The notes beneath the pieces were generated by a model, which saw nothing but the letters and a program-made list of their open reading frames with translations, was not told the origin of the DNA and ran no database searches. The translations under genes were made by a program, and so were the position numbers. Below, piece after piece: positions 2,044 through 24,230 of a DNA stretch of 64,000 nucleotides. The first letter of the stretch is position 1. The number at the start of each line of letters is the position of its first letter. Origin of the DNA: an uncultured archaeon (lineage in GTDB: Archaea; Asgardarchaeota; Lokiarchaeia; Sigyniarchaeales; SOKP01); contig CAZDTP010000008.1 of NCBI GenBank assembly GCA_964508365.1, positions 1-64,000 of the forward strand, read 5' to 3'.

Positions 2044-2061
2044 AAAATTGTTAAAAGGTAT

Positions 2062-3423
2062 TTGAAAAAGATGAAACTTTATAGATATTTATTATACGGT
2101 TCTGTTTGGTTAGTATTTTTTGTTTTAATATATATATATTTTCCACCTTTTTGGACTTCTGGGATAAAAGCAGCATTTGACGCATTTTTAAATGCTCCTT
2201 TAACTTATTGGTGGTTTATATTTCCACTAATTGGGTTAATTATGTTGTTAGGATTTGTTCTTTATTATGGAATACATTTCACCGCATCATTTGGGAGTGG
2301 TTATAAACCAAAAACATTACATTATGAAAAAGTTAGTATACTAATTGCTTCTAAAAATGAAAAAGTGTTACTAGAAAGAACATTAGATTCCATAGTTAAT
2401 TCAGATTACCCTAAAGAAAAGATCCAAATAATAATTATAACTAGTGGCTCTTCAGATGATACTACAGAATATTCAAATAATTTTTCTAGAGAACATAGTG
2501 AAATTGATATAGAAGTGTTATCGAAGAATTTACCTAAAAAAGGAAAACCTCCAGCGCTCAATTATGGTTTAGAATACGTAAAAAATGATATTGTAATTCT
2601 TTATGATTCAGGGTGCATTTTACAACCTGATACGCTTAAAAATTTGATATCTCCTTTTCATCGAGAAAATACTGACGCAGTTATTGGTCCTGTTCTAGTT
2701 AAAAACTGGAAAGATAATAAACTCACTAAGGGAATTTTTTTAGATTATGGTATGGTCTCTGGTGGTGGTTTACTATTTGAAGTTAAAAATAGACTAGGAT
2801 CTTCTGCCTATTCATTTGGACGGAATTTCGCAGTTAGAACAAAATATCTTCGGAAATATGGAGGTTTTAACGAAGATTCAATGACGGAAGATCTTTATCT
2901 CTCTGTACTTTTAAATTTAGATGGCGTACTAATTCGATTTTCGCCTAAAGCTAAGATTTATGAATATGTCCCAAATAGTTGGGAGATTTTGGTAAAACAA
3001 CGTACTCGTTGGCTTGCTGGATTTATATTTGATATGCCTCAGTTAATGACGATGAAGAGCGAATATAAAGATGGTAAAAAACTAATAATAGCAAGAAATA
3101 TGACAATGATGGTTTTAGCAAATATGGATACATGGATTCCAATAGAAATCGGATTTGCAATATTTCAATTTTTGATTGGAGAATATTACTTACTCATTTG
3201 GACTCTGTCTTGTTTATTTTTTCAATTTGGCTTCATATTTAATGCTATAAGAAAATATTGCGATAAGCATTACAGCCTTATTTTCTTTTTCCCAATAAGT
3301 GGTATTATTCATCTTTATATGTTTTTACGACAATTTAAATTACCCAAAGAAATCAGTTGGGAAAAAACACCAATGCTATTAGAACGCGAAGAAGCGGAAA
3401 TATTAGCTTTATCTAATATGTAA
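2062..3423 (+). CDS. GT2 glycosyltransferase, cellulose-synthase-like membrane type
   Basis: GKPPALN, YDS, TEDL and QRTRW (QxxRW) motifs; N- and C-terminal TM helices; alternative ATG at 2071. Confidence 0.9.
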   Translation: MKKMKLYRYLLYGSVWLVFFVLIYIYFPPFWTSGIKAAFDAFLNAPLTYWWFIFPLIGLIMLLGFVLYYGIHFTASFGSGYKPKTLHYEKVSILIASKNEKVLLERTLDSIVNSDYPKEKIQIIIITSGSSDDTTEYSNNFSREHSEIDIEVLSKNLPKKGKPPALNYGLEYVKNDIVILYDSGCILQPDTLKNLISPFHRENTDAVIGPVLVKNWKDNKLTKGIFLDYGMVSGGGLLFEVKNRLGSSAYSFGRNFAVRTKYLRKYGGFNEDSMTEDLYLSVLLNLDGVLIRFSPKAKIYEYVPNSWEILVKQRTRWLAGFIFDMPQLMTMKSEYKDGKKLIIARNMTMMVLANMDTWIPIEIGFAIFQFLIGEYYLLIWTLSCLFFQFGFIFNAIRKYCDKHYSLIFFFPISGIIHLYMFLRQFKLPKEISWEKTPMLLEREEAEILALSNM

Positions 3424-3520
3424 TAATTCTTATATTCCTTCTTTATTTTATATTTATATACCAATCAAAGTTATTTGAATTAGGATTATAGATTATTATA
3501 TTTTTTAAGAGGTATCCATA

Positions 3521-4822
3521 TTGTTACTTAAATTTCATGATCTCTTACCGGAAGAATTAAAAACAAAGTATTTTGACTTTAAGTTCCGTGATTACCCGGA
3601 CGATGAATTTTGTAAAGAATTGTTAAAACAAACGATCTTATCCTATAATAATTGTAAGTATTATAAGGATAAAATTTGCAACAAATTCGATTTTACAATT
3701 CCTGATGAAATATCGATTGATAATTTAGAAACAATCCCTTATGTTCCCACAGACATTTATAAAAAATCAGGAAATCGAACCCTAAGTCTATCCAAAGTAC
3801 CTCTTGAGAATATAGCACTCTTTTCGTGTTCATCTTCTACTACAGGAGATCCTTCGATAGTTCCCAGAACAGTAGAAGATTATGATCAATTGCAGTATAA
3901 TTCAATTAAGGTTTTTACAGAATTTTTTGGATGGGAAAAATTAAATATAGAATCTAAAAGATGTGTTGCTTTTAATTTTTCGCCAGATCGTTTATTCATG
4001 TCAATAATGGCAAAAAGAAGTGTTAAAGGATTTGAATATGTTGACAAAACTCGGTACTATACAGCATGCATGAATAAACCTTGGGAATTTTATGGATATG
4101 AGGAATATTTGGTAAAAATGAAAATTTTAAAAACAATATGGGCAATTATATCAACTTTTTCACTGAGAGGGGGCTTCATTTTGGATGTTACTAAAATGTT
4201 GAAAATGATAAAAAAAATTAAAGAAACGGGACATTGGAAAAATACCGAGGTAAGTAAAATTTTATTAGGTGGAAGTCCACTCTTAATGAACAACATGTTT
4301 GAGAAGAGATTGTTAAAAGAAAATGTGTTTATTGATCTTGATGGAATATCTCTTGTCGGTTGTGGTGGTGGTGGATGGGATGGTGTTAAAGGCGAAGCAA
4401 AGATGGATGAGGTAAATAAAAGTAGATTCATTGAATATTATGAAAAAGTGTTTAACATTAAACCAAAGGATATTAGGGATATTTATGCATTTACAGAGTG
4501 TCCTACACTTTTTGGAGGTCATTGGTCTGAGAAATATCAAGATTTTTTACTACACTGCCCTGATACTACTCGAATAATTATAAGGGATCTTGAAAATTTA
4601 GAACCCGTTAGTATTGGAGAAGAAGGACTTTTGGAAGTTCTTACACCTTATGGCGTTAATGGTAGTATAAATCAAGCAGTCTTAGTTGATGACATTGTAG
4701 AATTAATCTCAAAAAATAAGTGTCCAGAGTGTGGTTATAAAGGAGCTACCTTTCGAATAATAGGGAGATTAAAAAATGCCCAAGGAAAAAGCTGTTCTTC
4801 TTTAATTAACTGGATCTATTAG
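3521..4822 (+). CDS. LuxE-like acyl-protein synthetase / ANL-fold adenylating enzyme
   Basis: P-loop-like SSSTTGDPS, DIYAFTE, GLLEVLTP, and C-terminal FRIIGRLKNAQGKSCS resembling the LuxE GR..A..KGC acyl-Cys tail; RBS GAGGT before the TTG start. Confidence 0.7.
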   Translation: MLLKFHDLLPEELKTKYFDFKFRDYPDDEFCKELLKQTILSYNNCKYYKDKICNKFDFTIPDEISIDNLETIPYVPTDIYKKSGNRTLSLSKVPLENIALFSCSSSTTGDPSIVPRTVEDYDQLQYNSIKVFTEFFGWEKLNIESKRCVAFNFSPDRLFMSIMAKRSVKGFEYVDKTRYYTACMNKPWEFYGYEEYLVKMKILKTIWAIISTFSLRGGFILDVTKMLKMIKKIKETGHWKNTEVSKILLGGSPLLMNNMFEKRLLKENVFIDLDGISLVGCGGGGWDGVKGEAKMDEVNKSRFIEYYEKVFNIKPKDIRDIYAFTECPTLFGGHWSEKYQDFLLHCPDTTRIIIRDLENLEPVSIGEEGLLEVLTPYGVNGSINQAVLVDDIVELISKNKCPECGYKGATFRIIGRLKNAQGKSCSSLINWIY

Positions 4823-4900: not shown

Positions 4901-5467
4901 TCAATAGGGTATTATAGACATCATAAGTATAGGAATTACTAGAAATATTATAGGAATTACTACCATAGGTATAATATTCATGACAATTCCAAACACCGCA
5001 AACACACTTCCAACCTTCTCAAGAGTATTTATCGGTTCAAATTTTCCAGCTTTACTACTATGTGTTCTGGAAAGTATTCCAAATACTAAGCCAGCAATAT
5101 GAAGAATTATAACGATAATCAACCCTACCAGTCCACCTATCAGTCCACCAGGATAATAAGGATAATACATTGATGGTATATAAAATCTGAATAAATTAAG
5201 ACCCCCAGAACTTAAACCGACACCTGTTAAAGTAAGCGATACAATAGAGAAGGCAAAGCACCTTTTTGAATGAAGTCCTGGCCCTCCTACTTTAATTGAT
5301 TTTGACTCGTAAACGGGAACTGATCTAACTGTTGATGACACTTGATTTTCTTCAGCTCTTACTTGAGGAGCTTCAGGAGGAGGAGTGGATAGGATAACAC
5401 TTCCACAGCTTGCACAAAACTTTTGGTCTTGGGATTCTAACTTTTCCCCACAATTTGGACAAAACAT
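4901..5467 (-). CDS. Zinc-ribbon + 3-TM membrane protein, tandem copy 1
   Basis: MFCPNCGEKL..FCASCG, PPPEAPQVRAE linker, GGPG..SK, FGILSR; ATG at 5467 after GTGAG is preferred over the track TTG at 5482. Confidence 0.8.
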   Translation of the reverse strand: MFCPNCGEKLESQDQKFCASCGSVILSTPPPEAPQVRAEENQVSSTVRSVPVYESKSIKVGGPGLHSKRCFAFSIVSLTLTGVGLSSGGLNLFRFYIPSMYYPYYPGGLIGGLVGLIIVIILHIAGLVFGILSRTHSSKAGKFEPINTLEKVGSVFAVFGIVMNIIPMVVIPIIFLVIPILMMSIIPY

Positions 5468-5575
5468 AATCTCACTTTCCAATTTTTATTAATTTAATTA
5501 CGTTTGATTGTGTTATTAATTGATTGGGTCTATTAAATCTTTTATTATTCATTCAAATATTTCCAGATTAGAAAT

Positions 5576-6133
5576 TCAGATAAATGGATAATAAAGAGGC
5601 ATAGAAGCTACTACAATACTAATAGGAATTAATACAAGAGGTATAACATTCTGGACAATTCCTATCACCCCGAGCACGCTTCCAACCCTCTTAAGAGTAT
5701 TTTGCATTTCACGTTTTCCAGCCTTACTACTGAATACCCTAGAAAGGATCGCAAATATTAAGCCAATAGAATAAAGAACCAAAGCTATAATCCGCAACCC
5801 AGGTCCTCCAGGAATTCTAGGAAACACATATATTGGTATAACATCTCTGAGAACTTTAAGAAACTCAAAAACAAAACCGATAACTGCTAAAACTATCGAT
5901 AACAAAGCGAAAGTAAAGACCATTTTTGAATAAAATCCTGGTCCTCCTACTTTAATTGGTTTTGATTCGGAAACGGGAACTGAACTAACTGTTGATGATG
6001 TTGATACTTGATTTTCTTTAGCTCTTACTTGAGGCGCTTCAAGAGGAGGAGTGGATTGGATTTCACTTCCACAGCTTGCACAAAAACAATGGTCTTGAGA
6101 TTTTAACTTTTCCCCACAATTCGGACAAAACAT
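5576..6133 (-). CDS. Zinc-ribbon + 3-TM membrane protein, tandem copy 2
   Basis: Same architecture and near-identical N-terminus as copies 1 and 3. Confidence 0.8.
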   Translation of the reverse strand: MFCPNCGEKLKSQDHCFCASCGSEIQSTPPLEAPQVRAKENQVSTSSTVSSVPVSESKPIKVGGPGFYSKMVFTFALLSIVLAVIGFVFEFLKVLRDVIPIYVFPRIPGGPGLRIIALVLYSIGLIFAILSRVFSSKAGKREMQNTLKRVGSVLGVIGIVQNVIPLVLIPISIVVASMPLYYPFI

Positions 6134-6274
6134 AATCTCACTTTCAGATTTTTATTAATCTATAATGATCGGATCTTTAATAATTGGATTTATTAAATCT
6201 TTTATTATTCCTTCAAATCGCTCTAGGTTAGAACTAATTTTAATTATAAAGAAAAGAAATAAGAAATTTCATAA

Positions 6275-6838
6275 TCAATAGATTATAGGAACTATTATTA
6301 TTAGAGAAATTAGCATAATTATCAATATTATAGAAACTACTACAAGAGGTATACTATTAATGACAATTCCAAATATCGCAAACACACTTCCAAGCTTCTC
6401 AAGAGTATTTATCGGTTCCGATATTCTAGCTTTACTACTATTTGTTCTAGAAAGTATCCCAAATATTAAGCCCGTAATATTAAGAATTACAGCTATAATT
6501 AACCCTATCACTCTAAAAGAATAATAAGGATAATAATAAGAATATGGAAATAAAATTCCCCTAAAAATACTAGCCCCAAAAGCATAACCGACACATGCTA
6601 AAGCAAGCGATACAATAGCGAAGGCAAAGGACTTTTTTGAATGAGATCCTGGCCCTCCTACTTTAACTGGTTTTGATGGGTAAACGGGAACTGATATAAC
6701 TGGTGAAGACACTTGCTTTTCTTCAGCTCTTACTTGAGGAGCTTCAGGAGGAGGAGTGGAGTGGATTTCACTTCCACAACTTGCACAAAAACTTTGGTCT
6801 TGGGATTTTAACTTTTCCCCACAATTTGGACAAAACAT
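6275..6838 (-). CDS. Zinc-ribbon + 3-TM membrane protein, tandem copy 3
   Basis: Same architecture and near-identical N-terminus as copies 1 and 2. Confidence 0.8.
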   Translation of the reverse strand: MFCPNCGEKLKSQDQSFCASCGSEIHSTPPPEAPQVRAEEKQVSSPVISVPVYPSKPVKVGGPGSHSKKSFAFAIVSLALACVGYAFGASIFRGILFPYSYYYPYYSFRVIGLIIAVILNITGLIFGILSRTNSSKARISEPINTLEKLGSVFAIFGIVINSIPLVVVSIILIIMLISLIIIVPIIY

Positions 6839-7033
6839 AATCTCACTTTAGAATTTCGTTTAATAATAATTGTGATTTCATTACTATTTAATAATATTAA
6901 TATGTCAAATTTAATATATTCGATCAAAATTTCTATTTGTCATGATATAGTTAGGAGATGAGGTTGTATTAAAATCTGCTATTTTTTATAAATGTTTTAT
7001 AGATACTTTAGGTTAAAAAAAATTAAAAAAAAA

Positions 7034-8440
7034 TTATTCATCCAAAAGTCCATGTTTTTTCAGCCCTTCCTTCATATCAGCTTGAAATGCACCAGGGGTC
7101 CCTTCTAGGAACGCGTTAGTTATATCTTGATTTTCAACTATTAGCGAAGCTCTTTTATTAGCTTTCTCTTCTGCAAGTGAAGAAATTGCCATTTTTGCCA
7201 TCTGCTGAAACTGAGGAGGGGACAATTGTATGAGATCATCAAAAATTCTCTCTGTTTCGTGATTCCATTCTAAACCGGATTTACTTATTTCCTTTGGTTT
7301 AGCTGATTCGAGCCCAAATTCGCGACTGGTCACAATATCATCCATATATTGTTTTAATGATTCTACATATCTGCGAGATTCTTCTTTGTCTAACACTATT
7401 GCTTTTTTTGCCCACTCTTCACAATAGTTACACTCATTACACATCGCTAAGCAATTCTGTTTTTTAAAAAAGTCTATAAATCCATCCAATTTGGTGTTAT
7501 CAATTATCAATTTTGATTTAGATTCTTTTCCAATTGTTTTAGTTAATTTCACATTGGGGTCTTTTTGTTCTAACCCCCCAAAGGACATTGAGAACCCTTG
7601 AATTATGTCTATAAGATTTCCGTCATATTTTCGTGAAGAAAAAGCTTTTACAGATCTAGTAATCCATTGTGTTGACATGCGACGTCCAGCTATTTTAAAA
7701 TTATCTATTCCAATCGCTTCATAGTGAGCTAAATCTTCAGGCCGAATCCATCTTGCTTTGATAACTTCTGTTGGATCTGAGAATTTGATAATGCTACAGT
7801 TTAAGATACATGTATCAATATAGTTACGCTCAAATTGTTGGTATGTTTGTGAAGCATGCCCTAAAGTATTATAGTGATAATTTCTAAAGGGACATTGGTA
7901 TAGACACCCATCAGTTAAAAGTAAAATAATTTTACATTTCACAGCTTTTTGAATTTGTTCCAATGTCTTGAAATCACGGTTTATCATTACCCCAAGAGTA
8001 ATTTCATCTGCCCCTAGCTTTTCATAAAACTTAGCTCGAGTAACACTATTCACATCAGCAATGGTAGAGACACGAATTTTTAGTTTTGGAAATTGTTCTT
8101 TAATAAGCTGTATTAAAAATGGAATGGTTACTGTAACACTATCAGCTCCAATATCACTAATCCACTGTAAATATTTAAGAAGTTCTTTATGGTAATGTGG
8201 ATCATATTCCAAATTATTCATACACGGAGCATTTAATAAATATGAAAACTCCATGCCTTTTTGATGTAGTTTTTGTATGTAATCAGCAATAAAATCTTCA
8301 GTTACTTTCTGTAGTAAAAACGAGGGACGCCCCCCACCTACAATTGAGTGGTCCGAAACTCCGTACACTCCAGTTACAGGATATTGAGCCAATTCCTCTA
8401 TGAGCTTTAAATCCCAATTTGTAGCTACGTGAAGTTTTAT
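7034..8440 (-). CDS. Peptidase U32 family Fe-S protein (UbiU/UbiV/TrhP/RlhA superfamily) with C-terminal ~80-aa helical module
   Basis: IVGGGR, YLLNAPC, GCLYQCPFR, WIRPED, FKIAGR and CLAMCNECNYC motifs; the frame opens at ATA 8440 (IKLHVATNWD) directly after RBS GGTGAG and an in-frame TAA. Confidence 0.85.
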   Translation of the reverse strand: MKLHVATNWDLKLIEELAQYPVTGVYGVSDHSIVGGGRPSFLLQKVTEDFIADYIQKLHQKGMEFSYLLNAPCMNNLEYDPHYHKELLKYLQWISDIGADSVTVTIPFLIQLIKEQFPKLKIRVSTIADVNSVTRAKFYEKLGADEITLGVMINRDFKTLEQIQKAVKCKIILLLTDGCLYQCPFRNYHYNTLGHASQTYQQFERNYIDTCILNCSIIKFSDPTEVIKARWIRPEDLAHYEAIGIDNFKIAGRRMSTQWITRSVKAFSSRKYDGNLIDIIQGFSMSFGGLEQKDPNVKLTKTIGKESKSKLIIDNTKLDGFIDFFKKQNCLAMCNECNYCEEWAKKAIVLDKEESRRYVESLKQYMDDIVTSREFGLESAKPKEISKSGLEWNHETERIFDDLIQLSPPQFQQMAKMAISSLAEEKANKRASLIVENQDITNAFLEGTPGAFQADMKEGLKKHGLLDE

Positions 8441-8457
8441 TTATCTCACCTTACTTA

Positions 8458-8847
8458 TTATTTTTGGATAGCTATATCATGAGCTTTGGCATTTAGTGGC
8501 AATAATGGTGCACATGCCATTAATTTGGAAGGATCACCGTCAACTTCATATTTTCCAGCCATTGTCGCTTCAATAGGATTAGTTTCTCCTGAATTTACCC
8601 TTTTAATTACATCGAAATTCGTTTTATGAATAATTTTTGGTACATCAGGTCCACTATATTCGCCCATTCCCCAACTCATTTTATCATCTTCGATTAATTG
8701 CCAATAATTCATCTCTGGACGATCATTGATTTTATATTGAAAAACTACTGGTGCGATGGGTTTCAATAGAGTTGATAAATCGGGTAATTCGTTATAGGCT
8801 TTCATGAAGCTATTAAGATATGCTTCCCACTCTTCCTTTGTGTCCAT
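8458..8847 (-). CDS. SCP2 sterol-binding-domain-like lipid carrier protein
   Basis: 129 aa with NPIEATMAGKYEVDGDPSKLM, matching the SCP2 pattern P..A.M.GK..V.GD...LM; RBS AAGGAGGT. Confidence 0.7.
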   Translation of the reverse strand: MDTKEEWEAYLNSFMKAYNELPDLSTLLKPIAPVVFQYKINDRPEMNYWQLIEDDKMSWGMGEYSGPDVPKIIHKTNFDVIKRVNSGETNPIEATMAGKYEVDGDPSKLMACAPLLPLNAKAHDIAIQK

Positions 8848-8910
8848 TTTAAGTTTTACCTCCTTATTATTTTGTTATATTATTTTTTACATTATACATG
8901 TTAGAAAAAA

Positions 8911-10083
8911 TTACGTATAAAATTCAAGTCCCGCTTTTGCACCCATCAATAAGAAATCTACCATAGTTCCATTATAGTCATTTTCGATCTTATAGTACAT
9001 TCCATCTGGTGTGAAAGTTACACCATAAATGAACTTATGAACATCGCTTTGGAAAGGAGATTCCTCAACAAATTTCTGTATTAATGGGTGAAAATGAACT
9101 GGAACTTCTTTGACATCATGGCATGCTACACCAAAACATAATCGTTCAATTTTTTCAGAATCCCAGCTAAAAGTAAAGTTAAGGTGTGCAGCATTACAAC
9201 AACTCTCCATTATTTCTCTAGATACTGACTTAAATCCCAGGTCCTCCACAAGAGTTTTACACTTCTCATAAGTAGCTGTAGAAGTATCCTTTACCATGAA
9301 ATAAATGTTTGTTGTATTTTTCAAGAAATCAAAAGCAAATAGCGCTAATGTAGTTAAACTATGTTTTTTGAAGTAGGTTTCATATTTTTTAATACTTTCA
9401 GGGATATATTTCATCAAAAAAAGCGGATTGATTGATCCTGGTATGATGAAAGGCCAAATTTTTGAGAATCCTTTCCGCGCATCTATATCGACTCCATAGC
9501 CCATAATATCAAATGTATCCAATGTCTCTAAAATCATTTTATGGATAGGATGCCCATTTTTTTCAATTAATCCTTCATTTAAAGCTATTTTATAAGGATC
9601 AGGATTATGGGGGATCATCATTTCCACGTATCTTACGGATACATCCCTTCTTTCAACTGGTTTTGTTGTGGTTCTAATTGAAAGAGAGGAACCAGAATAA
9701 AATTCCTTGAATGCATTTAACGCTTTCCAAATAGCTTCTTCATTAAAATTCACTTCAGTAAGGATACAAAGTTTTTGAATATCCTTAACCATCTGATTAA
9801 GATCATTATTAAGTTTGAATTTGGAATTCACTTTTGGTAAATATAAATCGACATCAACCCCAAGAGTTTTCAAATCCTCAATCATGGTTGGTTGAAAAGC
9901 TGGTGGCGTAACTTCAAACAGCGCAACAACGAGATCCATTTCAGTTACAGATTTTCCATTTCGTTCCATACATTTTTTTTCTGATGTTTCAAGAAGCATA
10001 GGCCTTATAACAGGTCTAATCATTTCTGGAATTTTTAAAACCATGTCTTCGTATAATACTTTATGTTTTGGTTGCCAATTCAT
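8911..10083 (-). CDS. ABBA-type soluble aromatic prenyltransferase (NphB/CloQ-like) with N-terminal ~80-aa helical module
   Basis: NphB/CloQ-like motifs in the expected order: DPY..AL.EGL...GHP, YGVD...KGFSKIW, FDF.K.TTNIYF, SWDSEKIERLCFGV, IYGVTFTP..MYYKIENDY. Confidence 0.85.
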   Translation of the reverse strand: MNWQPKHKVLYEDMVLKIPEMIRPVIRPMLLETSEKKCMERNGKSVTEMDLVVALFEVTPPAFQPTMIEDLKTLGVDVDLYLPKVNSKFKLNNDLNQMVKDIQKLCILTEVNFNEEAIWKALNAFKEFYSGSSLSIRTTTKPVERRDVSVRYVEMMIPHNPDPYKIALNEGLIEKNGHPIHKMILETLDTFDIMGYGVDIDARKGFSKIWPFIIPGSINPLFLMKYIPESIKKYETYFKKHSLTTLALFAFDFLKNTTNIYFMVKDTSTATYEKCKTLVEDLGFKSVSREIMESCCNAAHLNFTFSWDSEKIERLCFGVACHDVKEVPVHFHPLIQKFVEESPFQSDVHKFIYGVTFTPDGMYYKIENDYNGTMVDFLLMGAKAGLEFYT

Positions 10084-10160
10084 TTTCTGTTTTACCTTTT
10101 TACATAATTTTAGTTTTAACTTTCTTTAAATCATACTATTTAACTTTTCTATGAACAATT

Positions 10161-11570
10161 TTATTGCTTATTTTCAATTATTTCAATTTCTTCCTTTTCA
10201 ATACTTTCCACTTCATGGTCATGATCATTTTCATGCCAACAAAATGGAAATGAACCAAAGAAGTCACCTGTAATATATTCTGCTGTTACTCTACAACCAC
10301 CGCCACAATACTCTAAATGATGACATGAAGCACACTTTCCCTTAATCTTTTTTCTATCTCGAATATCCTTGTAGAGCTGTGAATTTAATACATCTTCAAA
10401 ATTATCCACTAATGCGTTTCCTAGCGTCAATGTTGTAGGATATCCGGTGGGGTATATTGTTCCATCTATACCAATACCCATCATCGTTCGGCAAGCCAGA
10501 CATCCTACACCCCATTCAATTGCAGCCATTTCTTTATCGTTTTTAGGTGATTCCATAAATGGTACCATTTCATATATTTCATAAGCAGGTAATGTTCCCG
10601 ATTTGCCTTTTCTTATCGTTTCAATGGCGTGTTTGTATTTAAAATCGTACATCTTTTTGTATTCTTCCGTATTGAGGCCAATTTCACCCCAGAATTCAGC
10701 CGCTCGATTTTGTTTAACAACGCATCTAAAATATGGTTGAGAACCCCATTTTTCCGATAATACTTTGAGCTCTTCTAACTCGTTTATGTTATGTTTCATG
10801 ACAGTGATTGAAGAACATACAAAAATTCCATATTTTAAACATAAATCTATTGCCTTCTTAGCATAACCTAAAGAATTGGGAAACCCACGAATTTCATCAT
10901 TTTTCTTGGGATTTACACTATCAAAACTTACAAATACATGACTAATATTATTCTCCTTGCACATTTTGGCGAAATTCTCGTTAAAACTGACACCATTGGT
11001 TATTAAAGCATGGATGTAATCCTTCTCTTTGCAAAATTTCATGATTTCACCGATATCTTTACGTAAAGTAGGTTCACCACCGAACCATACGAAACAAGCA
11101 TGCCTACCTTGATTTCGCAAACCGGTTTCAACATTTTCTATAATCTGACACCACTGTTCGGTTGATAATTCTGGTCGGGCTATTTGATCATCTGCTGCAC
11201 AATGAATACATTTTTGATTACATATATCGGTAATATACAAAGCAAAATGTATGTTTCCTGGATGAAAACCTCTTTCAAGTTTATCCCATGAAACTTTTAG
11301 TCTATCCTTAATTTCCTTAAGTTCAATGTAGCGTTCTACATCTATATCTAACGATTTAAGATCCTCAACCATTATAGGCTTAAATGCTTCAGGGATAATG
11401 TCAAATATTCCTGTGACCACATCAGCGTCATTGATATAAGCGCCATTTCGCTCGAGGCATCTTTTTTCAGCAGCTTTTATCATCTGAGGTTCAACTGAAG
11501 GACGGAAACCTTGAGGCATTTGTTCTACTATTCTACCGAATAAATCTTTAGTTTCTTTTTCCCATTCCAT
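10161..11570 (-). CDS. Radical SAM/SPASM protein B with N-terminal helical module
   Basis: CNQKCIHC, GGEP, GCLACR and CASCHHLEYCGGGCR; RBS GGTGA. Confidence 0.9.
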   Translation of the reverse strand: MEWEKETKDLFGRIVEQMPQGFRPSVEPQMIKAAEKRCLERNGAYINDADVVTGIFDIIPEAFKPIMVEDLKSLDIDVERYIELKEIKDRLKVSWDKLERGFHPGNIHFALYITDICNQKCIHCAADDQIARPELSTEQWCQIIENVETGLRNQGRHACFVWFGGEPTLRKDIGEIMKFCKEKDYIHALITNGVSFNENFAKMCKENNISHVFVSFDSVNPKKNDEIRGFPNSLGYAKKAIDLCLKYGIFVCSSITVMKHNINELEELKVLSEKWGSQPYFRCVVKQNRAAEFWGEIGLNTEEYKKMYDFKYKHAIETIRKGKSGTLPAYEIYEMVPFMESPKNDKEMAAIEWGVGCLACRTMMGIGIDGTIYPTGYPTTLTLGNALVDNFEDVLNSQLYKDIRDRKKIKGKCASCHHLEYCGGGCRVTAEYITGDFFGSFPFCWHENDHDHEVESIEKEEIEIIENKQ

Positions 11571-11585
11571 TAAAATTCACCAATT

Positions 11586-12950
11586 TTAGCAATTTTCATG
11601 TTTATGATCGTTTTTATGCCAGCAAAATGGAAGAGAAGCTAAAAAATCACCAGTTTCGTTTTCGGCATGGACTCTACATCCTCCTCCGCACATATCAAGA
11701 TGATGGCAAGTAGAACATTTTCCTTTTATTTTCCTATCCCTGATAGCTTTGAACATTTCGGTTTCCATAATCTCCCCCCAGCTTTGCTCAAGAATGTTGC
11801 CTAAGATTAAATCAGAGGGATAATCGCAAGGGAATACATCTCCATTGGTATCAATTCCGGAAATTGAGCGGCAAGCTTGACATCCTGTGCCCCATTCAAT
11901 TGCAGTCCTTTCCTCATCATTCCTAGGACACTCCATGAATGGCACCATATCCCATGTATAGAATTTATTGAGAGAAGAAGCTTCCCCTTTTCTGATAGCC
12001 TCTATAGCGTGTTTATATTTGAAATCATAGAATTGCCGATATTCATCTATATTTAAGCCGATTTCGTCCCAATTTAAATCCGCGGAACGCTGTTTGATCA
12101 GGGGTCTGTAAAAGGGAGTTACGCCCCTAGATTGGAAATATTCCCTTAACTTATCTAATTCATCGAAGTTCTCTTTTTGTGCAGTTACATTAGCAATGGT
12201 AAAAAGCCCATATTTTGCAGCTAAATCTAACGCTTTTTCGGCCGCTTCGTATGCTTTTGGATACCCTCTAATTTTTGCAGCCCGTTTAGGATCCGTACTA
12301 TCATAACTAATAAAGACATGGCTCATTTTAGCTTCTGCGCATATTTTCGCCAGTGCATCATTAAACAAAATTCCATTTGTTGCAAGTGCTTGATAATAGC
12401 CCTTTTCACCGCAATATTTTATTAAATCTTTAAGATCCTTGCGAATAGTAGGTTCTCCTCCAAACCATATATAACACCCTTGACGACCTCGTTTTCGTAA
12501 GCTTTGCTCAAGATCCTCAATAATTTCGATCCAGGTTTCCGTAGGAAATTCTGGACGTTTTTCCATCACAGCGGCAGCACAATGGAGACAATTTTGGTTG
12601 CATCGATCCGTTAGATATATAGTAAAGTGGTAAACACCAGGTAGAAAAGCACCACTAATTTCGTCCCATGTACGCGCAAATTTTTGTCGAATTTCAGAAA
12701 GTTTGATATAACGATCGGTATCGATTCCAATGGTTTTTAAATCTGCTACAACTGTAGGCTGAAACGCTTCGGGTGTGATTTGAAATAGAGCTGATAACAA
12801 ATCATCTCTACTTACAAATCCAGAATTCCTAAGCGTTGCTGTTTTTTCAGCAGCTTCACGTAACATTAGCTTTACTGAAGCACGAAACCCTTCAGGTGTT
12901 AAATCAGTAATCTTCATATATAAATCTTCAATTTCTTTATTCCATTCCAT
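11586..12950 (-). CDS. Radical SAM/SPASM protein A with N-terminal helical module
   Basis: CNQNCLHC, GGEP, GCQACR..FPC and CSTCHHLDMCGGGCR; ATG at 12950 after RBS GGTGA. Confidence 0.9.
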   Translation of the reverse strand: MEWNKEIEDLYMKITDLTPEGFRASVKLMLREAAEKTATLRNSGFVSRDDLLSALFQITPEAFQPTVVADLKTIGIDTDRYIKLSEIRQKFARTWDEISGAFLPGVYHFTIYLTDRCNQNCLHCAAAVMEKRPEFPTETWIEIIEDLEQSLRKRGRQGCYIWFGGEPTIRKDLKDLIKYCGEKGYYQALATNGILFNDALAKICAEAKMSHVFISYDSTDPKRAAKIRGYPKAYEAAEKALDLAAKYGLFTIANVTAQKENFDELDKLREYFQSRGVTPFYRPLIKQRSADLNWDEIGLNIDEYRQFYDFKYKHAIEAIRKGEASSLNKFYTWDMVPFMECPRNDEERTAIEWGTGCQACRSISGIDTNGDVFPCDYPSDLILGNILEQSWGEIMETEMFKAIRDRKIKGKCSTCHHLDMCGGGCRVHAENETGDFLASLPFCWHKNDHKHENC

Positions 12951-13043
12951 TTTTTTCACCTTTTTTTAAATTTAAGCTCGTAAAAAATTTTATTTTATTA
13001 TATAAAATTATAATGAAATCAGTAAAAAATCGATATTTCATTA

Positions 13044-13724
13044 TTATCTTCCCTCCAACCGATGGATGTTATCGTTAAAATCAGAGAATATACTATTGTT
13101 TTTGGAAGGAAGGTGATTATTAGTCGAAAATTTTTGAAAAATAGAAGCAGTATTTTTATATTGGATATTTTTCTTGCTAGAATTATGTAAGTAATTAAGT
13201 TTATCATGTTTCATCTTAATTATACTACTGGAATATCCACGCTTACTGTTAAATTGATTGGTGTTGATTCTACTCTTCTGATAAAAGTTAAATTCAACAG
13301 AATTCTCATTGATTATAGTACCTGAATCATTTTTCAAGCCTATTATTAAATTTGAATTTAGAGATGATTCTTCTAGTGTTCCTTCAATCTCAAGAATATA
13401 TGGTTCTGCATATATTTCTAAATAATTTTTTATTAAGAATGCATTCACATAATACTGATAACCGATTCTTTCAATGAAAGCAATGATATTAATAATAATA
13501 ATAATGTCAATCAAATGACCCGTAGAGAAGTGGAAAATGATATTGCTATTGGGAAGAAAAGGAAGGAAAAGTGAGGAATTAGAATTGAAATAATCATTGA
13601 ATAAAGAATTTAGCAATGAAAAATCTCTAAAAAACATATAAATTAATGTAATTGGAACACTCGCTAAAAAAAAGAGGATTATTAGTATTCTTTTTAATAA
13701 GCTAATCTTTTGAGTAGAATGCAT
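13044..13724 (-). CDS. Hypothetical protein with two N-terminal TM segments
   Basis: 226-aa ORF with hydrophobic N-terminus and Asn/Ser-rich tail; no family recognised. Confidence 0.4.
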   Translation of the reverse strand: MHSTQKISLLKRILIILFFLASVPITLIYMFFRDFSLLNSLFNDYFNSNSSLFLPFLPNSNIIFHFSTGHLIDIIIIINIIAFIERIGYQYYVNAFLIKNYLEIYAEPYILEIEGTLEESSLNSNLIIGLKNDSGTIINENSVEFNFYQKSRINTNQFNSKRGYSSSIIKMKHDKLNYLHNSSKKNIQYKNTASIFQKFSTNNHLPSKNNSIFSDFNDNIHRLEGR

Positions 13725-13910: not shown

Positions 13911-15410
13911 TCATAGTATCATTTTTTCTTTCTTTTCAGGAGACTTATTCCCTGTTGTCATCATTGTGAGTGCTGTAATTAAAAAGAGTAGTTTATTAAA
14001 GTAACTAATAGTAGCACTAGAAAATATTTTTGTATCGTAATTTATAGCATTATAAAAAAAAGACATTTTAGTTTGTTTAAAAAATTCTTTAAGTTGCGGA
14101 AATGAATTATATTTTAAATTTATTTCAAAAGATTTAGGAGATTCGTATGCTGGGGAACCTGGAAAAATATGAAAAGGTTCATTCATTATAGTAATAGGTT
14201 TTGATTTTGTTTTACCATATTTTAACACACTTTTAATAGCAAAATTAAAATCTTTTTGAACATCTAACCTAGTTTGGAATGGAAAACCAACCGTTAACCA
14301 AATTCTTAATGTCCTTCGGAATAAATTTGCATTTCTTATTAGGTCTTCAATTTGATTTTTTGGAAATTTAAATGTTGGATCGCATATTTTCGCTATTCTT
14401 TGATGAACTTTTGCAGACAAAGTTCTAGGAGAAATACTAACTGATGAAGATCTACGAGGAAAAGTCTTATAAAATATTTTCCACATTTCCTTAGGGAAAG
14501 GTAACCGCCAAATCTCTAGATCTCCGCCAATATCTAGTTTTTCTTTTTGAATCAAACCAAACAATGTTTTCCAATATTTGAGATTAGCCGGATAAGTGCC
14601 ATGCCCAAAAAATAAACTTGGAACTTTATACATATCTACTATAGATGTAATATCCTCAATTACTTTTTCAGGACTCATGAGAATGACTTCATTTCGACCT
14701 GCTAGGTGTTGTAAGGCTCTTTGACCTCCTCCACAAAAGGGACAGTTAAATGGACAACCTCTTCCTATTGGAAGATTGAAAGAGATTCCCATTATTTTTC
14801 TGCTACATTCAAAATATTGTTTTGCATTTTTTAGAATGGATGTGTTTGTAAAATTTAAATTATCTAATGTTTTTGCAGTGTAGGAAAGAGAATTAGTTTT
14901 TATATAGTTAGATGAGTTCCGATAAGAAAAATTGGGAACAGAATCTAAAGATTGATTCTTGTTAATATTTTGAACATACTTTAAAAGAGGGATCTCACCC
15001 TCTCCTCTTATTATTCCATCAATTGATTTGTAATCTTTTAAAATTTGAGTATGGAAATACGATGCACTAAACCCACCTAGTACTACTTTGGCATTAGGTT
15101 TTACTTCCTTTATGATTTTAGCAATCTCAATAGCTCCATGTGCATTATGTATCCAATGTAAATCTATTCCACATATTTTAAAATCAATAGTTTTAATATA
15201 GTCTATTAATGACCAATTAGGGTTTAAATATTGCTCTAAAGGATAATTTATTATTTTTACTCCAAAACCTTCTCTCTCAAGGAAATCAGCAATAGCAAAA
15301 ACCCCCATTGGAATAAAAATAAATGCAGTTCGAACAGATTTTGCTTTTTTATCATTATCTGGTTTTAGTACTCTAGGCGGATGAATGAAAATTACATCGT
15401 AACTTTTCAA
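13911..15410 (-). CDS. B12-binding radical SAM protein 1
   Basis: PMG, VVLGG..AS, IIRGEGE, GRGCPFNCPFC; lacks the usual GxES motif. Confidence 0.85.
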   Translation of the reverse strand: MKSYDVIFIHPPRVLKPDNDKKAKSVRTAFIFIPMGVFAIADFLEREGFGVKIINYPLEQYLNPNWSLIDYIKTIDFKICGIDLHWIHNAHGAIEIAKIIKEVKPNAKVVLGGFSASYFHTQILKDYKSIDGIIRGEGEIPLLKYVQNINKNQSLDSVPNFSYRNSSNYIKTNSLSYTAKTLDNLNFTNTSILKNAKQYFECSRKIMGISFNLPIGRGCPFNCPFCGGGQRALQHLAGRNEVILMSPEKVIEDITSIVDMYKVPSLFFGHGTYPANLKYWKTLFGLIQKEKLDIGGDLEIWRLPFPKEMWKIFYKTFPRRSSSVSISPRTLSAKVHQRIAKICDPTFKFPKNQIEDLIRNANLFRRTLRIWLTVGFPFQTRLDVQKDFNFAIKSVLKYGKTKSKPITIMNEPFHIFPGSPAYESPKSFEINLKYNSFPQLKEFFKQTKMSFFYNAINYDTKIFSSATISYFNKLLFLITALTMMTTGNKSPEKKEKMIL

Positions 15411-15544: not shown

Positions 15545-15907
15545 TTGAAAATAATAATATCTTGTCCAAGTTGTGGTGCTCAATTAGAAATACCTAACCA
15601 AATTGTTTTTCAAAAATGTGGAAGTGAGCTTCCAGCTTTTTCCAAGAGTTCCGTATTAGCAAAAAGATATTCAGTTTCAACAGAAAATCACAAGATGCAT
15701 CAATTGCTGCAAAAATTAGTTATAATACCTGGTTTACGGCTTCTTTCAAAAAGATGCTTTGGATTTGGAATATTATCTAGAGTAAATAGCGGAAAAGCAA
15801 AGGAATTGGAACCTGAAAGTTCTATTTTGAAAGCGAGAAGTGCTTTGGGAGTAATAGGTCTTGTTATTAACTCCATCTTAGTGGTAACAGCAATTATATT
15901 GATATGA
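15545..15907 (+). pseudogene. Degenerate, internally deleted paralog of the 4.9-6.8 kb zinc-ribbon membrane genes
   Basis: CPSCG retained but the third Cys is lost (VFQKCG); SKRCF is joined directly to GFGILSR, skipping the first TM region. Confidence 0.55.
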
Positions 15908-17063: not shown

Positions 17064-18185
17064 TTGAAATCAAAAAATAAGGATTCAACGAATTTTCCCC
17101 TAAGTGGATATGCTGGTTATGGGATAACTAAATTTTTTTCCTCAGTTAAAAGACTTTCATATTTACTCGCAAGAATAGAAACGCTATTATCACATGATGA
17201 GATTAACGATCTTTCAATTGAAAGACCAATTTATATTGTTGGTCTTGCACGAGCGGGAACAACTATTATTCTAGAAATGTTAAGTAAACATCCCTTTTTA
17301 GCTTCGCATAAGTACAGACACTTTCTTATGCCATATTTCCCTCATAGGTTTAGTCGAATTATTGACCAGTCAAGATTTTTCACTAAACCTAGGGAACGTG
17401 TCCATAAGGATGGAATATTTGTCACCCGTGAAAGCCCTGAAGCTGTAGAAGAAATATTTTGGCAAGACTTCTTCACCAACAGTCATAATGAAGAAAATTC
17501 AAATATTTTAAGTAGGACTATGTCTAAACCCAAGTTTGAACAATTTTATCGAAATCATATACGAAAACTTCTATTAAATCAAAGATGTTCACGTTATTTG
17601 GCAAAAAATAATTACAATATAACCAGATTAGAATATTTAGATCGAATTTTTCCAAATGTTAAGTTTTTATTGATAATACGCAATCCAGTAAATCAAATCG
17701 CATCTTTAATTAAGCAAACAAGTCTTTTTAGAGAAATGGAAAAAGATAATCCTCTTTTAATTGATTGGCATAGAATAACTGGACATAGTGAGTTCGGTCA
17801 TTATCAAAAATGTATAAATACCGGCGACAATGAACTCATTCATAAAATTCGTAGATTATGGAAAAATGAAAAAACTTATGTAAAAGGTTGGGCTTATTAC
17901 TGGTCTTCAATATATGATTATGTAATGAATCTTCTTGAAACAAATAAGAAGATTAAAGAATCAACTCTTATTATCAGGTATGAAGATTTATGTGAAAATC
18001 CTGCAGAAATAATAGATAAAATACTTGAACATACTGAACTACCTTTAGATAATTTCGAGAAAATAAAAAAGTATTACATTAGACATCTTCATAAACCTAC
18101 ATATTATACTCCAAATTTTTCTAATCAAGAATTACTAGATATCTCTGAGATTACTAATAAAACAGCATCTCGATATGGATATTAA
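17064..18185 (+). CDS. PAPS-dependent sulfotransferase family protein
   Basis: 5'-PSB motif IVGLARAGTT, 3'-PB motif IIRNP...IAS, and IRYEDLC.NP. Confidence 0.85.
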   Translation: MKSKNKDSTNFPLSGYAGYGITKFFSSVKRLSYLLARIETLLSHDEINDLSIERPIYIVGLARAGTTIILEMLSKHPFLASHKYRHFLMPYFPHRFSRIIDQSRFFTKPRERVHKDGIFVTRESPEAVEEIFWQDFFTNSHNEENSNILSRTMSKPKFEQFYRNHIRKLLLNQRCSRYLAKNNYNITRLEYLDRIFPNVKFLLIIRNPVNQIASLIKQTSLFREMEKDNPLLIDWHRITGHSEFGHYQKCINTGDNELIHKIRRLWKNEKTYVKGWAYYWSSIYDYVMNLLETNKKIKESTLIIRYEDLCENPAEIIDKILEHTELPLDNFEKIKKYYIRHLHKPTYYTPNFSNQELLDISEITNKTASRYGY

Positions 18186-18332
18186 TGAGATAATGGAAAT
18201 ATTCGAATTAATACTAAAAGTTTAGCATTTAGATTAACCAGTAATCTTTTTTACTAAAAAATATACTCAATTGATATAACTTATAAATATAATGTATTTG
18301 CTTCATAATTACAGATAAAATAATTGATGGTT

Positions 18333-19463: not shown

Positions 19464-19573
19464 TGTCTTAATTTTGTATCAATTAATTATTTAATCAATC
19501 TACTATTTATGTAGAATAATAACACATCATCTTCTAATAATATATAAATTTTCTGTTATTCCTTTGATAAGAA

Positions 19574-20326: not shown

Positions 20327-20418
20327 ATGATTTAATATAGCAAAGAATTTTCCGTTTGATTGAAAAATAATCGATATTTACAACTTTCAAGTTATTAAAA
20401 ATAAATGATAAAGGAGAA

Positions 20419-21876: not shown

Positions 21877-22031
21877 AAATATTTGCCTAAATCTGTTGAA
21901 TTCTTCATCAGATTTAACAAGATTCCCATTTAAACGGGAGAAGTTTTTATTATATCTTTTCAATATAATAAAGAATATATATGTATTAGATCATTTTTTT
22001 CTTAATATAAATAATATTAAGTGAAAATTTA

Positions 22032-22517: not shown

Positions 22518-22634
22518 ATGATTTTTTTTATTTTTTCAGCCCTATATTTTTTGAAAATATTAAAATAATTTTATAAAAATAGAATTGAAATAAAAATAAA
22601 AAGTTAAAATTAAAAATATATAGATAGAACTATT

Positions 22635-23117: not shown

Positions 23118-23365
23118 TTTACCACCCTTTAATTTTTATTCTTAATTTCTAAATTAATTAATATTCTAAATAACAACAGAAAACTATATAACAATTTTCT
23201 TTTTTTGGCTCTCTTTAAATATATTTATCAAGTTTAGATCGCTATAATTTATAAATTTTTAAGAAATACAGATTGACTTTTAACAAATATAATCTTTAAA
23301 ATTAAAGAGATTAAGTGTTTTTTAAAATATAAGATATATTAGGTCTTTAGATTTAGGCTTACATA

Positions 23366-24139: not shown

Positions 24140-24230
24140 TTTATAACATGTGGGTTTATCTCAAAATCTTATAAGAAATTAATTCGTTACTTTGTTATTG
24201 ATAGATAACAAGGATATTAAATTCGAAAAC

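Follow-up and report, generated by a model that had tools for sequence, protein, structure and literature searches.

Five co-oriented genes on the minus strand of the window (the whole stretch of 64,000 nucleotides analysed) encode two radical SAM/SPASM enzymes (rSAM1 and rSAM2), a prenyltransferase of the ABBA (PTase_Orf2) type, an SCP2 protein and a divergent U32 protein, and form an operon of this Loki-type Asgard archaeon that is real and conserved, yet optional. The conserved unit exceeds the span first reported and adds the genes at 13044-13724 and 13911-15410; the B12-binding radical SAM enzyme (B12-rSAM) and the small membrane protein (a homologue or a positional equivalent) they encode accompany the cluster in every relative examined. 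With a probability of about one half, the operon would represent an optional, O2-independent pathway tailoring one hydrophobic metabolite, for which the likeliest candidate is a membrane lipid that bears an isoprenoid and an electron-rich (aromatic-like) group. The features of the region are the following:

1108-2043, plus strand: CDP-alcohol phosphatidyltransferase (Pfam), convergent neighbour
2062-3423, plus strand: GT2 glycosyltransferase (Pfam), convergent neighbour
3521-4822, plus strand: LuxE-like acyl-activating enzyme (Pfam), convergent neighbour
4901-6838, minus strand: three tandem zinc-ribbon membrane paralogues of 193, 185 and 187 aa (Pfam zinc-ribbon matches, hydropathy)
7034-8440 (probable start), minus strand: divergent U32 Fe-S protein with a C-terminal helical module at 7037-7282 (PF01136, AlphaFold2)
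8458-8847, minus strand: SCP2-type lipid-carrier protein, 129 aa (PF02036)
8911-10083, minus strand: helical module (9829-10083) and predicted ABBA/PT-barrel prenyltransferase (residues 94-378; PF11468)
10161-11570, minus strand: rSAM2, helical module (11289-11570) and radical SAM/SPASM (Pfam)
11586-12959, minus strand: rSAM1, helical module (about 12669-12950) and radical SAM/SPASM (Pfam)
13044-13724, minus strand: small membrane protein, 226 aa (hydropathy scan), unit member outside the span first reported
13911-15410, minus strand: type-A B12-binding radical SAM enzyme, 499 aa, conserved first gene of the unit
15545-15907, plus strand: fourth, shorter zinc-ribbon membrane family member, 120 aa, on the opposite flank (tblastn)

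The layout proposed in the first-pass annotation, with gaps of 15-77 bp between the five co-oriented genes, is borne out by the minus-strand ORF calls (11586-12959, 10161-11570, 8911-10083, 8458-8847 and 7034-8392), the intergenic gaps being 15, 77, 63 and 65 bp, or 17 bp for the final one if the U32 gene starts at ATA 8440. The U32 frame runs 16 conserved codons further upstream, to position 8440, and this extension is kept in all relatives; the codon at 8440 is GTG in the relatives and ATA here, directly behind an in-frame TAA, and represents the probable start. The most likely start of rSAM1 is ATG 12950, which matches the end coordinate of the earlier annotation. Ribosome-binding sites of the GGTGA/GGAGG type, announced for most of the genes, occur before rSAM1 and rSAM2 (GGTGA, 5-6 nt upstream of ATG 12950 and ATG 11570), SCP2 (AAGGAGG) and the U32 frame (GGTGAG), whereas the prenyltransferase gene displays only AAAGGT. 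All five family assignments hold in a Pfam search.

The prenyltransferase, product of the sole PTase_Orf2 gene of the genome, matches PF11468 (1e-51, 176.5 bits against a cut-off of 22) over profile positions 2-283 of 287, and its barrel is matched by phmmer to the solved ABBA enzymes 5ynt, AmbP3, AmbP1 and 4ee6 (E ~1e-37 to 5e-39) and to entry 1zb6 (E 3e-22). AmbP1 corresponds to 5yk9 and AmbP3 to 5y4g, 5ynt is near-identical to AmbP3, and 4ee6 and 1zb6 are presumably EpzP and NphB; 5ynt, 4ee6 and 1zb6 bear the deposited names aromatic prenyltransferase or prenyltransferase. The motifs NIYF, IERLCF and YYKI align with those of the solved enzymes. Both the full-length profile match and the homology to solved barrel enzymes uphold the PT-barrel claimed for this protein, which is a predicted aromatic prenyltransferase.

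The SCP2 protein (PF02036, 7.6e-6, 26.6 bits against a cut-off of 21.3) is encoded by a single copy in the genome, and is conserved in the relatives with 55-73% identity and 41 invariant columns. The U32 protein matches Peptidase_U32 (PF01136, 8.5e-15, 55 bits against a cut-off of 22.4) over profile positions 2-84 of 233 only; in a comparison on this profile, three canonical U32 proteins encoded at other sites of the genome reach 263-268 bits and the operon protein 47, and the NCBIfam TrhP model gives 32.3 bits, under its cut-off of 534. The AlphaFold2 model (pLDDT 86.7) has the U32 protein Mk0906 (5d88, TM-score 0.74 by target) as top PDB match, and a profile search of the PDB recovers the same entry at 1.4e-17; the Peptidase_U32 domain and the U32 TIM-barrel fold are thus both supported. 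Four conserved cysteines, C73, C179, C183 and C215 (counted from the ATA start), follow a CXnCX3CX31C spacing which is nearest to the UbiV type, with the first cysteine located far upstream, and differs from the CX6CX15CX3/4C-like pattern whose four conserved cysteines bind a 4Fe-4S cluster in U32 hydroxylases (PMC6747719). A further invariant CX3CX2CX2C occurs at 330-340. The pairing of U32 with SCP2, proposed to mirror UbiU/V-UbiT, is found as adjacent genes here and as U32-module-SCP2 fusions in locus L014 and in the proteins P0050 and P0129. This operon has one U32 gene, and some relatives have two or three.

The gene set co-occurs elsewhere: it was recovered, in shuffled order, at 13 fetched loci that span at least 7 genera and 3 families of the class, a recurrence which indicates a linkage beyond chance. 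Of 399 genomes of the phylum, 48 possess the module; the 32 with a prenyltransferase are all among these, and PTase_Orf2 was found in none of the 351 module-free genomes. Nearly all carriers of the module or the prenyltransferase belong to one class, where the distribution is patchy even within the genus of this genome (13 of 41 genomes) and where a sister family has neither the module nor the prenyltransferase in 13 genomes sampled, including three single-contig genomes. The homologues bear the NCBI names Lokiarchaeota or Promethearchaeota. A literature search for a described pathway with this gene set returned no paper, in agreement with the earlier annotation.

Depending on the genome, the prenyltransferase itself may be absent. 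The 100% complete genome G246 possesses a cassette ordered B12-rSAM, membrane protein, rSAM1 type (91% identity), SCP2 and U32, whereas the 98% complete G213 possesses membrane protein, SCP2, U32 and B12-rSAM, and PTase_Orf2 was found in neither of these whole genomes. Such minimal cassettes keep SCP2, U32, B12-rSAM and the membrane protein, the SPASM enzyme being optional. In this respect, rSAM2 occurs in all the prenyltransferase-bearing loci fetched whole and is missing from the prenyltransferase-free L032 and L038. A second in-operon B12-rSAM, present in most relatives, is missing here, and the product is therefore probably less methylated.

These cassettes bear on the idea that the operon assembles a new membrane electron carrier resembling quinones or phenazines, to which the ABBA enzyme would add the tail in place of UbiA and U32/SCP2 the ring hydroxyls. 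The enzyme logic does parallel that of anaerobic ubiquinone synthesis, as it joins prenylation and methylation to a hydroxylation that is assisted by an SCP2 protein and independent of O2, and the solved relatives of the prenyltransferase are named aromatic prenyltransferases or belong to the hapalindole/ambiguine pathway (AmbP1/AmbP3). However, near-complete relatives keep prenyltransferase-free cassettes, which speaks against the ABBA enzyme as the step that starts the pathway, and nothing needs replacing since six UbiA-family genes are available in the genome. In addition, neither NuoH nor a NarI/HdrE-type cytochrome b was found in this 100% complete genome, which deprives a quinone-like carrier of a consumer, while the cluster is optional within one genus and does not contain chorismate-derived ring-building genes. 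The substitution of UbiA is thus not supported, the electron carrier is unlikely, and the product is probably other than a respiratory quinone.

The radical SAM enzymes have distant named relatives. Pfam recognizes Radical_SAM and SPASM domains twice (6e-22/2e-10 and 5e-22/1e-6), and both proteins possess the CX3CX2C motif, at 120/124/127 in rSAM1 and 117/121/124 in its paralogue rSAM2 (50% identity), together with a SPASM domain of about 7 cysteines (344-446 and 357-444, respectively). Their best NCBIfam matches are AhbD/NirJ/AhbC, with the AhbD/NirJ models at 120-132 bits (132.5 and 128.8) against cut-offs of 500-650, so that the equivalog threshold is not reached, and both enzymes lie far beneath the cut-off of every curated family; MftC, PqqE and several peptide maturases also occur among the matches. 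The B12-rSAM combines B12-binding (7e-15) and Radical_SAM (7e-8) domains in Pfam; of the NCBIfam models, TIGR04190 (Ta0216 family) comes closest, with 264 bits where 500 are required, followed by BchE, and the orthologues of the enzyme (56-86% identity) adjoin the cluster in L012, L014, L016, L017 and L031-L035. The membrane protein, encoded by a single-copy gene, comprises hydrophobic segments at residues 5-34 and 62-89 followed by an N/S-rich tail, and has no match in Pfam or NCBIfam; a homologue (30-49% identity) or positional equivalent precedes rSAM1 or SCP2 in L014-L017, L032 and L038.

A helical module of about 85-90 residues, resembling DUF2621 and PCP_red, is fused to rSAM1, rSAM2, the prenyltransferase and U32, the SCP2 protein being the only one of the five reported gene products devoid of it. 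The module is restricted to this system: the 100% complete genome contains exactly four copies, all within the operon, and only 293 cluster representatives match among 1.84 billion proteins. In 19 of these representatives a fusion domain was scanned, and the partners were PTase_Orf2, U32, SCP2 and rSAM/SPASM, with LuxC in front once; the module also stands alone in P0031, while the match in the TPR protein P0037 is likely a spurious repeat match. In the prenyltransferase of this genome it forms the N-terminal end, whereas that of two other families has it at the C-terminal end. DUF2621 scores 15-25 bits on the four operon copies, against a gathering cut-off of 27.7 which some relatives pass, such as P0031 with 29.2, PCP_red reaches 28 bits on P0022 against a cut-off of 32.5, and the closest ESM Atlas clusters are free-standing 85-residue bacterial DUF2621 proteins. 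PCP_red is the C-terminal domain of BchB/ChlB, known from the NMR structures 2kru and 2l09. The module, an all-helical bundle, matches 2kru weakly by Foldseek (probability 0.77, E 0.37) and 2l09 by VIA-align with a Z of 6.6, a value common among helical bundles.

Since the nearest named families are AhbD/NirJ, BchE and the PCP_red domain of BchB, a pathway of tetrapyrrole tailoring has been considered. The AhbD/NirJ/AhbC models head the list for both SPASM enzymes, BchE comes second for the B12-rSAM and the module faintly resembles PCP_red, but the AhbD/NirJ/BchE scores fall far under the family cut-offs, HemB (porphobilinogen synthase) was not found in the 100% complete genome, and we know of no tetrapyrrole role for either SCP2 proteins or ABBA prenyltransferases; this reading is extremely unlikely.

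The flanks raise a different question, that of a RiPP or protein-modification system in which the SPASM enzymes, the prenyltransferase and U32 would act on a ribosomal peptide or on the zinc-ribbon membrane proteins, with the module recognizing the peptide. The latter proteins, in which a zinc ribbon at the N-terminus is joined by a Pro-rich linker to 3-4 membrane helices, occur in the genome as four copies only, all beside the operon, and related genes flank the cluster in L014, L016, L017 and L033; counterparts of the gene at 15545-15907 adjoin the type-A B12-rSAM in L014 (1776-2282) and L016 (17579-18085). An extra N-terminal domain on SPASM enzymes is, moreover, typical of RiPP maturases, which agrees with the MftC and PqqE matches. 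However, a check of the intergenic regions of the operon found no conserved small ORF as a precursor peptide, and the all-helical module differs from the RRE, a winged helix with a β-sheet. The SCP2 carrier and the U32-SCP2 fusions are likewise foreign to RiPP systems, and the zinc-ribbon family also occurs in many module-free genomes, often on other contigs. Modification of a peptide or protein is accordingly very unlikely, and the membership of the zinc-ribbon paralogues in the unit is uncertain.

Other neighbours point to lipids. Genes for a CDP-alcohol transferase, GT2, a LuxE-like enzyme and a sulfotransferase recur near the cluster in other genera, e.g., a CDP-OH transferase in L031 (G209), LuxE-like, sulfotransferase and CDP-OH transferase genes in L034 (G280), and GT2 and CDP-OH transferase genes directly adjoining the minimal cassette of L038 (G213). 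The CDP-alcohol transferase, GT2 and LuxE-like neighbours are possibly linked to the operon, although the recurrence of the head-group genes, partly among related genomes, could be inherited gene order. Outside the Asgard group, module-bearing clusters combine B12-rSAMs, U32 and SCP2 with degradative-looking partners, namely alpha/beta-hydrolase, aldehyde:ferredoxin oxidoreductases, amidohydrolase_2 and cupin in L025 and L026, and aldehyde dehydrogenase and AMP-binding enzymes in L028. These clusters, like the patchy distribution which suits an accessory trait, would fit a catabolic or salvage attack without oxygen on a hydrophobic compound from the environment (alkyl- or prenyl-aromatic, isoprenoid or steroid-like). 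This reading is nevertheless improbable for the Asgard operon: an ABBA enzyme that transfers prenyl groups serves anabolism, the hydrolase, CoA-ligase/thiolase or oxidoreductase genes by which a breakdown would continue are missing from the Asgard clusters, and the neighbours of these clusters are genes of lipid head-group and glycosyl/sulfo transfer.

In the tailoring pathway preferred here, all catalytic roles are assigned by analogy. The SCP2 protein would carry the hydrophobic intermediate, a role that UbiT/UbiJ play in ubiquinone synthesis, the SPASM enzymes would perform radical C-H chemistry on the SCP2-held scaffold, rSAM1 as part of the wider system and rSAM2 together with the prenyltransferase, and the B12-rSAM would methylate it. 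The ABBA enzyme would add a prenyl group as a decoration, the lipid tail being made otherwise. Hydroxylation without O2 may fall to the divergent U32 Fe-S protein, by analogy with UbiU/V, for which prephenate is the oxygen donor (PMC10990095). The genome has a chorismate mutase gene and can thus make prephenate. To our knowledge, the substrates of the characterised U32 hydroxylases (uridine, cytidine, the ubiquinone ring) are all attacked at ring sp2 carbons, so that a purely aliphatic lipid would be unprecedented among them. The helical module may serve as a common adaptor bringing rSAM1, rSAM2, the prenyltransferase and U32 to one partner, for which the carrier, the membrane protein, the enzymes themselves or the substrate are candidates. 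In its boldest form, rather unlikely as a whole, the proposal is that some Loki-type Asgard archaea make a new O2-free membrane lipid, with an isoprenoid scaffold that is hydroxylated, methylated, radical-modified and prenylated, and that the helical adaptor, portable between proteins, would assemble four unrelated enzymes at an SCP2 carrier or at an anchor in the membrane. If true, the archaea most closely related to eukaryotes would have not only a new lipid but also an anaerobic pathway organized in a new manner.

One close parallel is UbiT-UbiU-UbiV, which serves the hydroxylation of ubiquinone without O2 in Proteobacteria (PMC6747719): there too, a U32-family Fe-S protein is encoded beside an SCP2 lipid-binding protein in an anaerobic setting, and U32/SCP2 gene fusions exist in both cases. 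The Asgard archaeal operon differs by its other cysteine spacing, extra CX3CX2CX2C cluster and C-terminal module, by its radical SAM and ABBA partners, by the lack of Ubi genes alongside, and by a host in which the two consumer families searched, NuoH-type and NarI/HdrE-type subunits, were not found. UbiU and UbiV work as a heterodimer, whereas a single divergent U32 protein occurs here. With AmbP1, AmbP3, 5ynt, 4ee6 and 1zb6 the prenyltransferase shares the full-length PTase_Orf2 match and the barrel motifs, but it has an archaeal host, an additional helical module and Fe-S/radical enzymes as neighbours, and some versions of the cassette do without it. The SPASM enzymes resemble AhbD/NirJ/AhbC, PqqE, MftC and anSME in their CX3CX2C core and SPASM domain with seven or more cysteines; they are devoid of the peptide or tetrapyrrole context of AhbD/NirJ/PqqE-type enzymes, and the helical module takes the N-terminal place of the RRE domain of peptide maturases. 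The type-A B12-rSAM shares its domain order with TIGR04190, a family itself without assigned function, but stays below the 500-bit cut-off. Finally, the module resembles DUF2621 (PF11084) and PCP_red (PF08369), small helical domains of about 60-90 residues for neither of which we know a function outside protochlorophyllide reductase, and differs from both in lying under the Pfam gathering scores and in being fused to four catalytic scaffolds of one operon.

The five protein families that the first-pass annotation had assigned to the operon are all borne out by Pfam, and the tight spacing of the five minus-strand reading frames (gaps of 15-77 bp) and the GGTGA/GGAGG ribosome-binding sites are present as it had stated. 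The unit is larger than that annotation had it, a B12-binding radical SAM enzyme (B12-rSAM) and a small membrane protein travelling with the five-gene set. The first five genes below are listed from their ORF calls and Pfam matches.

7034-8392, minus strand: U32 protein (Peptidase_U32); the frame extends to 8440
8458-8847, minus strand: SCP2 protein
8911-10083, minus strand: prenyltransferase (PTase_Orf2)
10161-11570, minus strand: rSAM2 (Radical_SAM and SPASM domains)
11586-12959, minus strand: rSAM1 (Radical_SAM and SPASM domains)
13044-13724, minus strand: small membrane protein without known family
13911-15410, minus strand: B12-binding radical SAM enzyme

The PTase_Orf2 match (1e-51) covers the profile almost completely, the Peptidase_U32 match exceeds its cut-off over the first third of the profile only, and the SCP2 match barely exceeds the Pfam cut-off. 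The start of rSAM1 is probably the ATG at 12950. The U32 gene appears to start with an ATA codon at 8440 (minus strand, 8392-8440). The reading frame continues upstream to that position through 16 conserved codons, which are found in all relatives, with GTG at locus L014 where the window has ATA. An in-frame TAA immediately precedes this codon (ATA-AAA-CTT-CAC-GTA-GCT-ACA-AAT-TGG), and a GGTGAG lies 4 nt upstream of it.

In 13 fetched loci of relatives, which represent three of the families in the class and several genera, rSAM1, rSAM2, the prenyltransferase, SCP2 and U32 are again found together. Their order is shuffled while the set is kept together, which argues for a functional linkage rather than an inherited gene order. 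In most relatives, rSAM2 and the prenyltransferase are separated by a second B12-rSAM, a gene without an orthologue in the present genome (the best match is 30% identical), so that the operon described here represents a short version, also occurring in genome G059. Other relatives possess additional U32 paralogues, additional SCP2 copies or a U32-module-SCP2 fusion, the module being the helical domain described below.

Two genomes possess the cassette devoid of any prenyltransferase. G246 (100% complete, 30 contigs) contains, at positions 5226-11082 of locus L032, B12-rSAM - membrane protein - rSAM1 type - SCP2 - U32, with no PTase_Orf2 genome-wide, and G213 (98% complete), from which the prenyltransferase is likewise absent, contains membrane protein - SCP2 - U32 - B12-rSAM. 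rSAM2 occurs in every prenyltransferase locus fetched whole and is missing from both of these cassettes. The core thus consists of U32, SCP2, B12-rSAM and the membrane protein, and the prenyltransferase is an add-on. The substrate would have to be hydrophobic even ahead of prenylation by the ABBA enzyme. The earlier proposal of the ABBA enzyme as a substitute for UbiA is accordingly weakened, and the genome has six UbiA-family genes anyway; the best-scoring of these (2.3e-44) is located at 57951-58661 on the plus strand, about 45 kb from the operon. Taken together, the loci form a natural series, from the core to the core plus rSAM1, the full set, and the full set plus the second B12-rSAM (the last exemplified by L014, 2429-15036), which could serve to assign each step.

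rSAM1, rSAM2 and the prenyltransferase share a homologous N-terminal stretch of ~85 residues, which is also homologous to the last ~85 residues of the U32 protein. A profile search of this 100%-complete genome yielded exactly four copies of the module, all inside the operon. The prenyltransferases from two further families in the class bear the module at the C-terminus, and its occurrence at either end of the enzyme identifies it as a portable domain. AlphaFold2 predicts a confident four- to five-helix bundle (pLDDT 86.6). All four copies give sub-threshold matches to DUF2621, and the copy of one relative gives a sub-threshold match to PCP_red (PF08369), a family without any match in this genome at E <= 0.1. 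Foldseek returned no match at E <= 0.001 and, at higher E-values, weak matches to the PCP_red NMR structures 2kru and 2l09, while in the ESM Atlas the module lies nearest to free-standing 85-residue bacterial DUF2621 proteins. The top VIA-align matches are AAA+ lid domains with Z scores of 7-9, usual for small helical bundles; these matches being generic, only a putative family-level kinship is claimed, and neither a specific fold relative nor a function.

The module matches only 293 among 1.84 billion representative proteins. Twenty of the 293 were scanned for partner domains, and 18 carry PTase_Orf2, U32, SCP2 or rSAM/SPASM beside the module, including P0057, where the module and its rSAM/SPASM partner follow a LuxC domain; in P0031 the scan showed no domain besides the module. 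P0037, a TPR-repeat protein with 11 matched stretches, appears to be a spurious helical-repeat match. Among the bacterial module-prenyltransferase proteins, P0061 stands alone at its locus, and P0045 and P0097 are located on contigs too short to reveal their gene context. At locus L018 (genome G010), the U32 protein encoded at 5104-6798 terminates in two tandem modules at its C-terminus, on a contig with two U32 genes and two or three SCP2 genes. A complex prediction for the SCP2 protein and the module gave no answer (score 0.00, mark 0.32) and counts neither way. The module represents a rare adaptor-like domain common to four catalytic scaffolds.

Of 399 surveyed genomes of the phylum, 48 possess the module; almost all of these are from one class, and they include 13-14 of the 41 genomes of the genus. 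PTase_Orf2 was detected in 32 of the 399, all within these 48, and in none of the 351 module-free genomes. The homologues are labelled by NCBI as Promethearchaeota/Lokiarchaeota or with other Asgard names, and this, together with the patchy presence, makes the operon an optional trait of Loki-type Asgard archaea.

The operon is flanked by two further groups of genes.

1108-4822, plus strand: co-oriented genes for a CDP-alcohol phosphatidyltransferase, a GT2 glycosyltransferase and a LuxE-like acyl-activating enzyme, convergent with the operon
4901-6838, minus strand, and 15545-15907, plus strand: four paralogues with a zinc ribbon, a Pro-rich linker and a multi-pass membrane region, on both flanks

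Beyond these four zinc-ribbon paralogues, the genome has no further member of the family, which also flanks the operon at L033, a locus from another genus. The zinc-ribbon proteins were rejected as obligate members, because many genomes carry the family without the operon: in the genus, it occurs in all module-positive genomes (13-14) plus four module-negative ones, and in another genus in 16 module-negative genomes, often on other contigs.

No LuxC partner for the LuxE-like gene occurs anywhere in the genome. Past the B12-rSAM of the operon come a sulfotransferase, an acyltransferase, another GT2 and more B12-rSAMs. The B12-rSAM island at 17064-28906, with such genes at 20419-21876, 24231-25715, 25916-27400 and 27437-28906 (the last three from ORF size and tblastn), also holds a sulfotransferase, a hexapeptide acyltransferase and a GT2, and resembles a larger region for the modification of lipids or glycans. 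In three further genera, the cluster contains or adjoins homologues of the CDP-alcohol transferase, GT2, LuxE-like enzyme and sulfotransferase, and in G213 such head-group homologues directly adjoin the minimal cassette. That the first three recur in three genera suggests that the operon product is linked with head-group or acylation chemistry. Outside Asgard, clusters with the module associate U32, SCP2 and B12-rSAMs with enzymes activating or interconverting acids and aldehydes, namely LuxE/LuxC, aldehyde:ferredoxin oxidoreductase, or aldehyde dehydrogenase with AMP-binding and carrier proteins. The gene context points, circumstantially, to a lipid-like substrate that offers a carboxylate or a head group as a handle.

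At two loci from outside the class, L025 (GCA_040752695.1) and L026 (GCA_024644125.1), several B12-rSAMs occur with U32 genes, an alpha/beta-hydrolase, one or two aldehyde:ferredoxin oxidoreductases and a giant protein of the U32-module-SCP2 or module-SCP2 type; a free-standing DUF2621 gene of 84 codons is a further component of L025. L024 (an ENA contig, 7420-12850) contains an operon of LuxE, LuxC and a fusion of LuxC with the helical module and radical SAM/SPASM, the only case found of the module linking an acyl-reductase with a SPASM enzyme.

With respect to the product, the quinone-like electron carrier envisaged by the first-pass annotation would lack two obvious classes of consumers, since neither a NuoH-type subunit nor a NarI/HdrE-type cytochrome b was found in this 100%-complete genome, and a respiratory carrier is not likely. 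A tetrapyrrole substrate, to which the nearest named families (AhbD/NirJ and BchE) would lead, is a weakened reading in a genome where HemB was not found. A RiPP pathway is unlikely: no conserved small ORF occurs between the operon genes, the six-frame small ORFs of the intergenic regions matching, at eight relatives' loci, only gene edges and nearly identical DNA from closely related genomes, and the module consists of helices only, at odds with the RRE fold, which is unlike such a bundle.

For the lipid-like substrate, the following scheme is proposed. SCP2 would hold a hydrophobic intermediate, on which U32 may perform an O2-independent hydroxylation and the SPASM enzymes and B12-rSAM radical modification and methylation; in the fuller operon versions, the ABBA enzyme, paired with rSAM2, would add a prenyl group, and the helical module could gather the four enzymes at one common partner. 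The oxygen donor in the UbiU/V reactions is prephenate (PMC10990095), and prephenate is available here since chorismate mutase is present in this genome. Literature searches on this set of genes, on its module and on prenyltransferases of Asgard archaea returned nothing, and the papers retrieved on UbiU, UbiT and archaea do not cover this cluster. Asgard membrane chemistry bears on the origin of the eukaryotic membrane, so any new Asgard lipid is of interest.

Compared with known systems, the prenyltransferase can be aligned along the entire barrel to AmbP1, AmbP3 and the entries 5ynt, 4ee6 and 1zb6, with the conserved motifs in place; none of these solved relatives is known to be other than bacterial, and with this operon a soluble ABBA prenyltransferase becomes part of a pathway in archaea. 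Both SPASM enzymes have complete cysteine sets and score far under every curated family cut-off. The U32 protein folds as a U32 TIM barrel, with Mk0906 (5d88) as best PDB match, and stands clearly apart from the genome's three canonical U32 genes; its conserved cysteines are spaced differently from the published U32 motif, and it has an additional invariant CX3CX2CX2C cluster. The proposed scheme predicts one or two 4Fe-4S clusters in this protein. No hydroxylating enzymes with an organic oxygen donor are known besides U32 proteins, for which three substrates are known, the ubiquinone ring, a tRNA uridine and an rRNA cytidine. The operon may offer a fourth, lipid-linked case, archaeal and equipped with an SCP2 carrier and defined partner enzymes.
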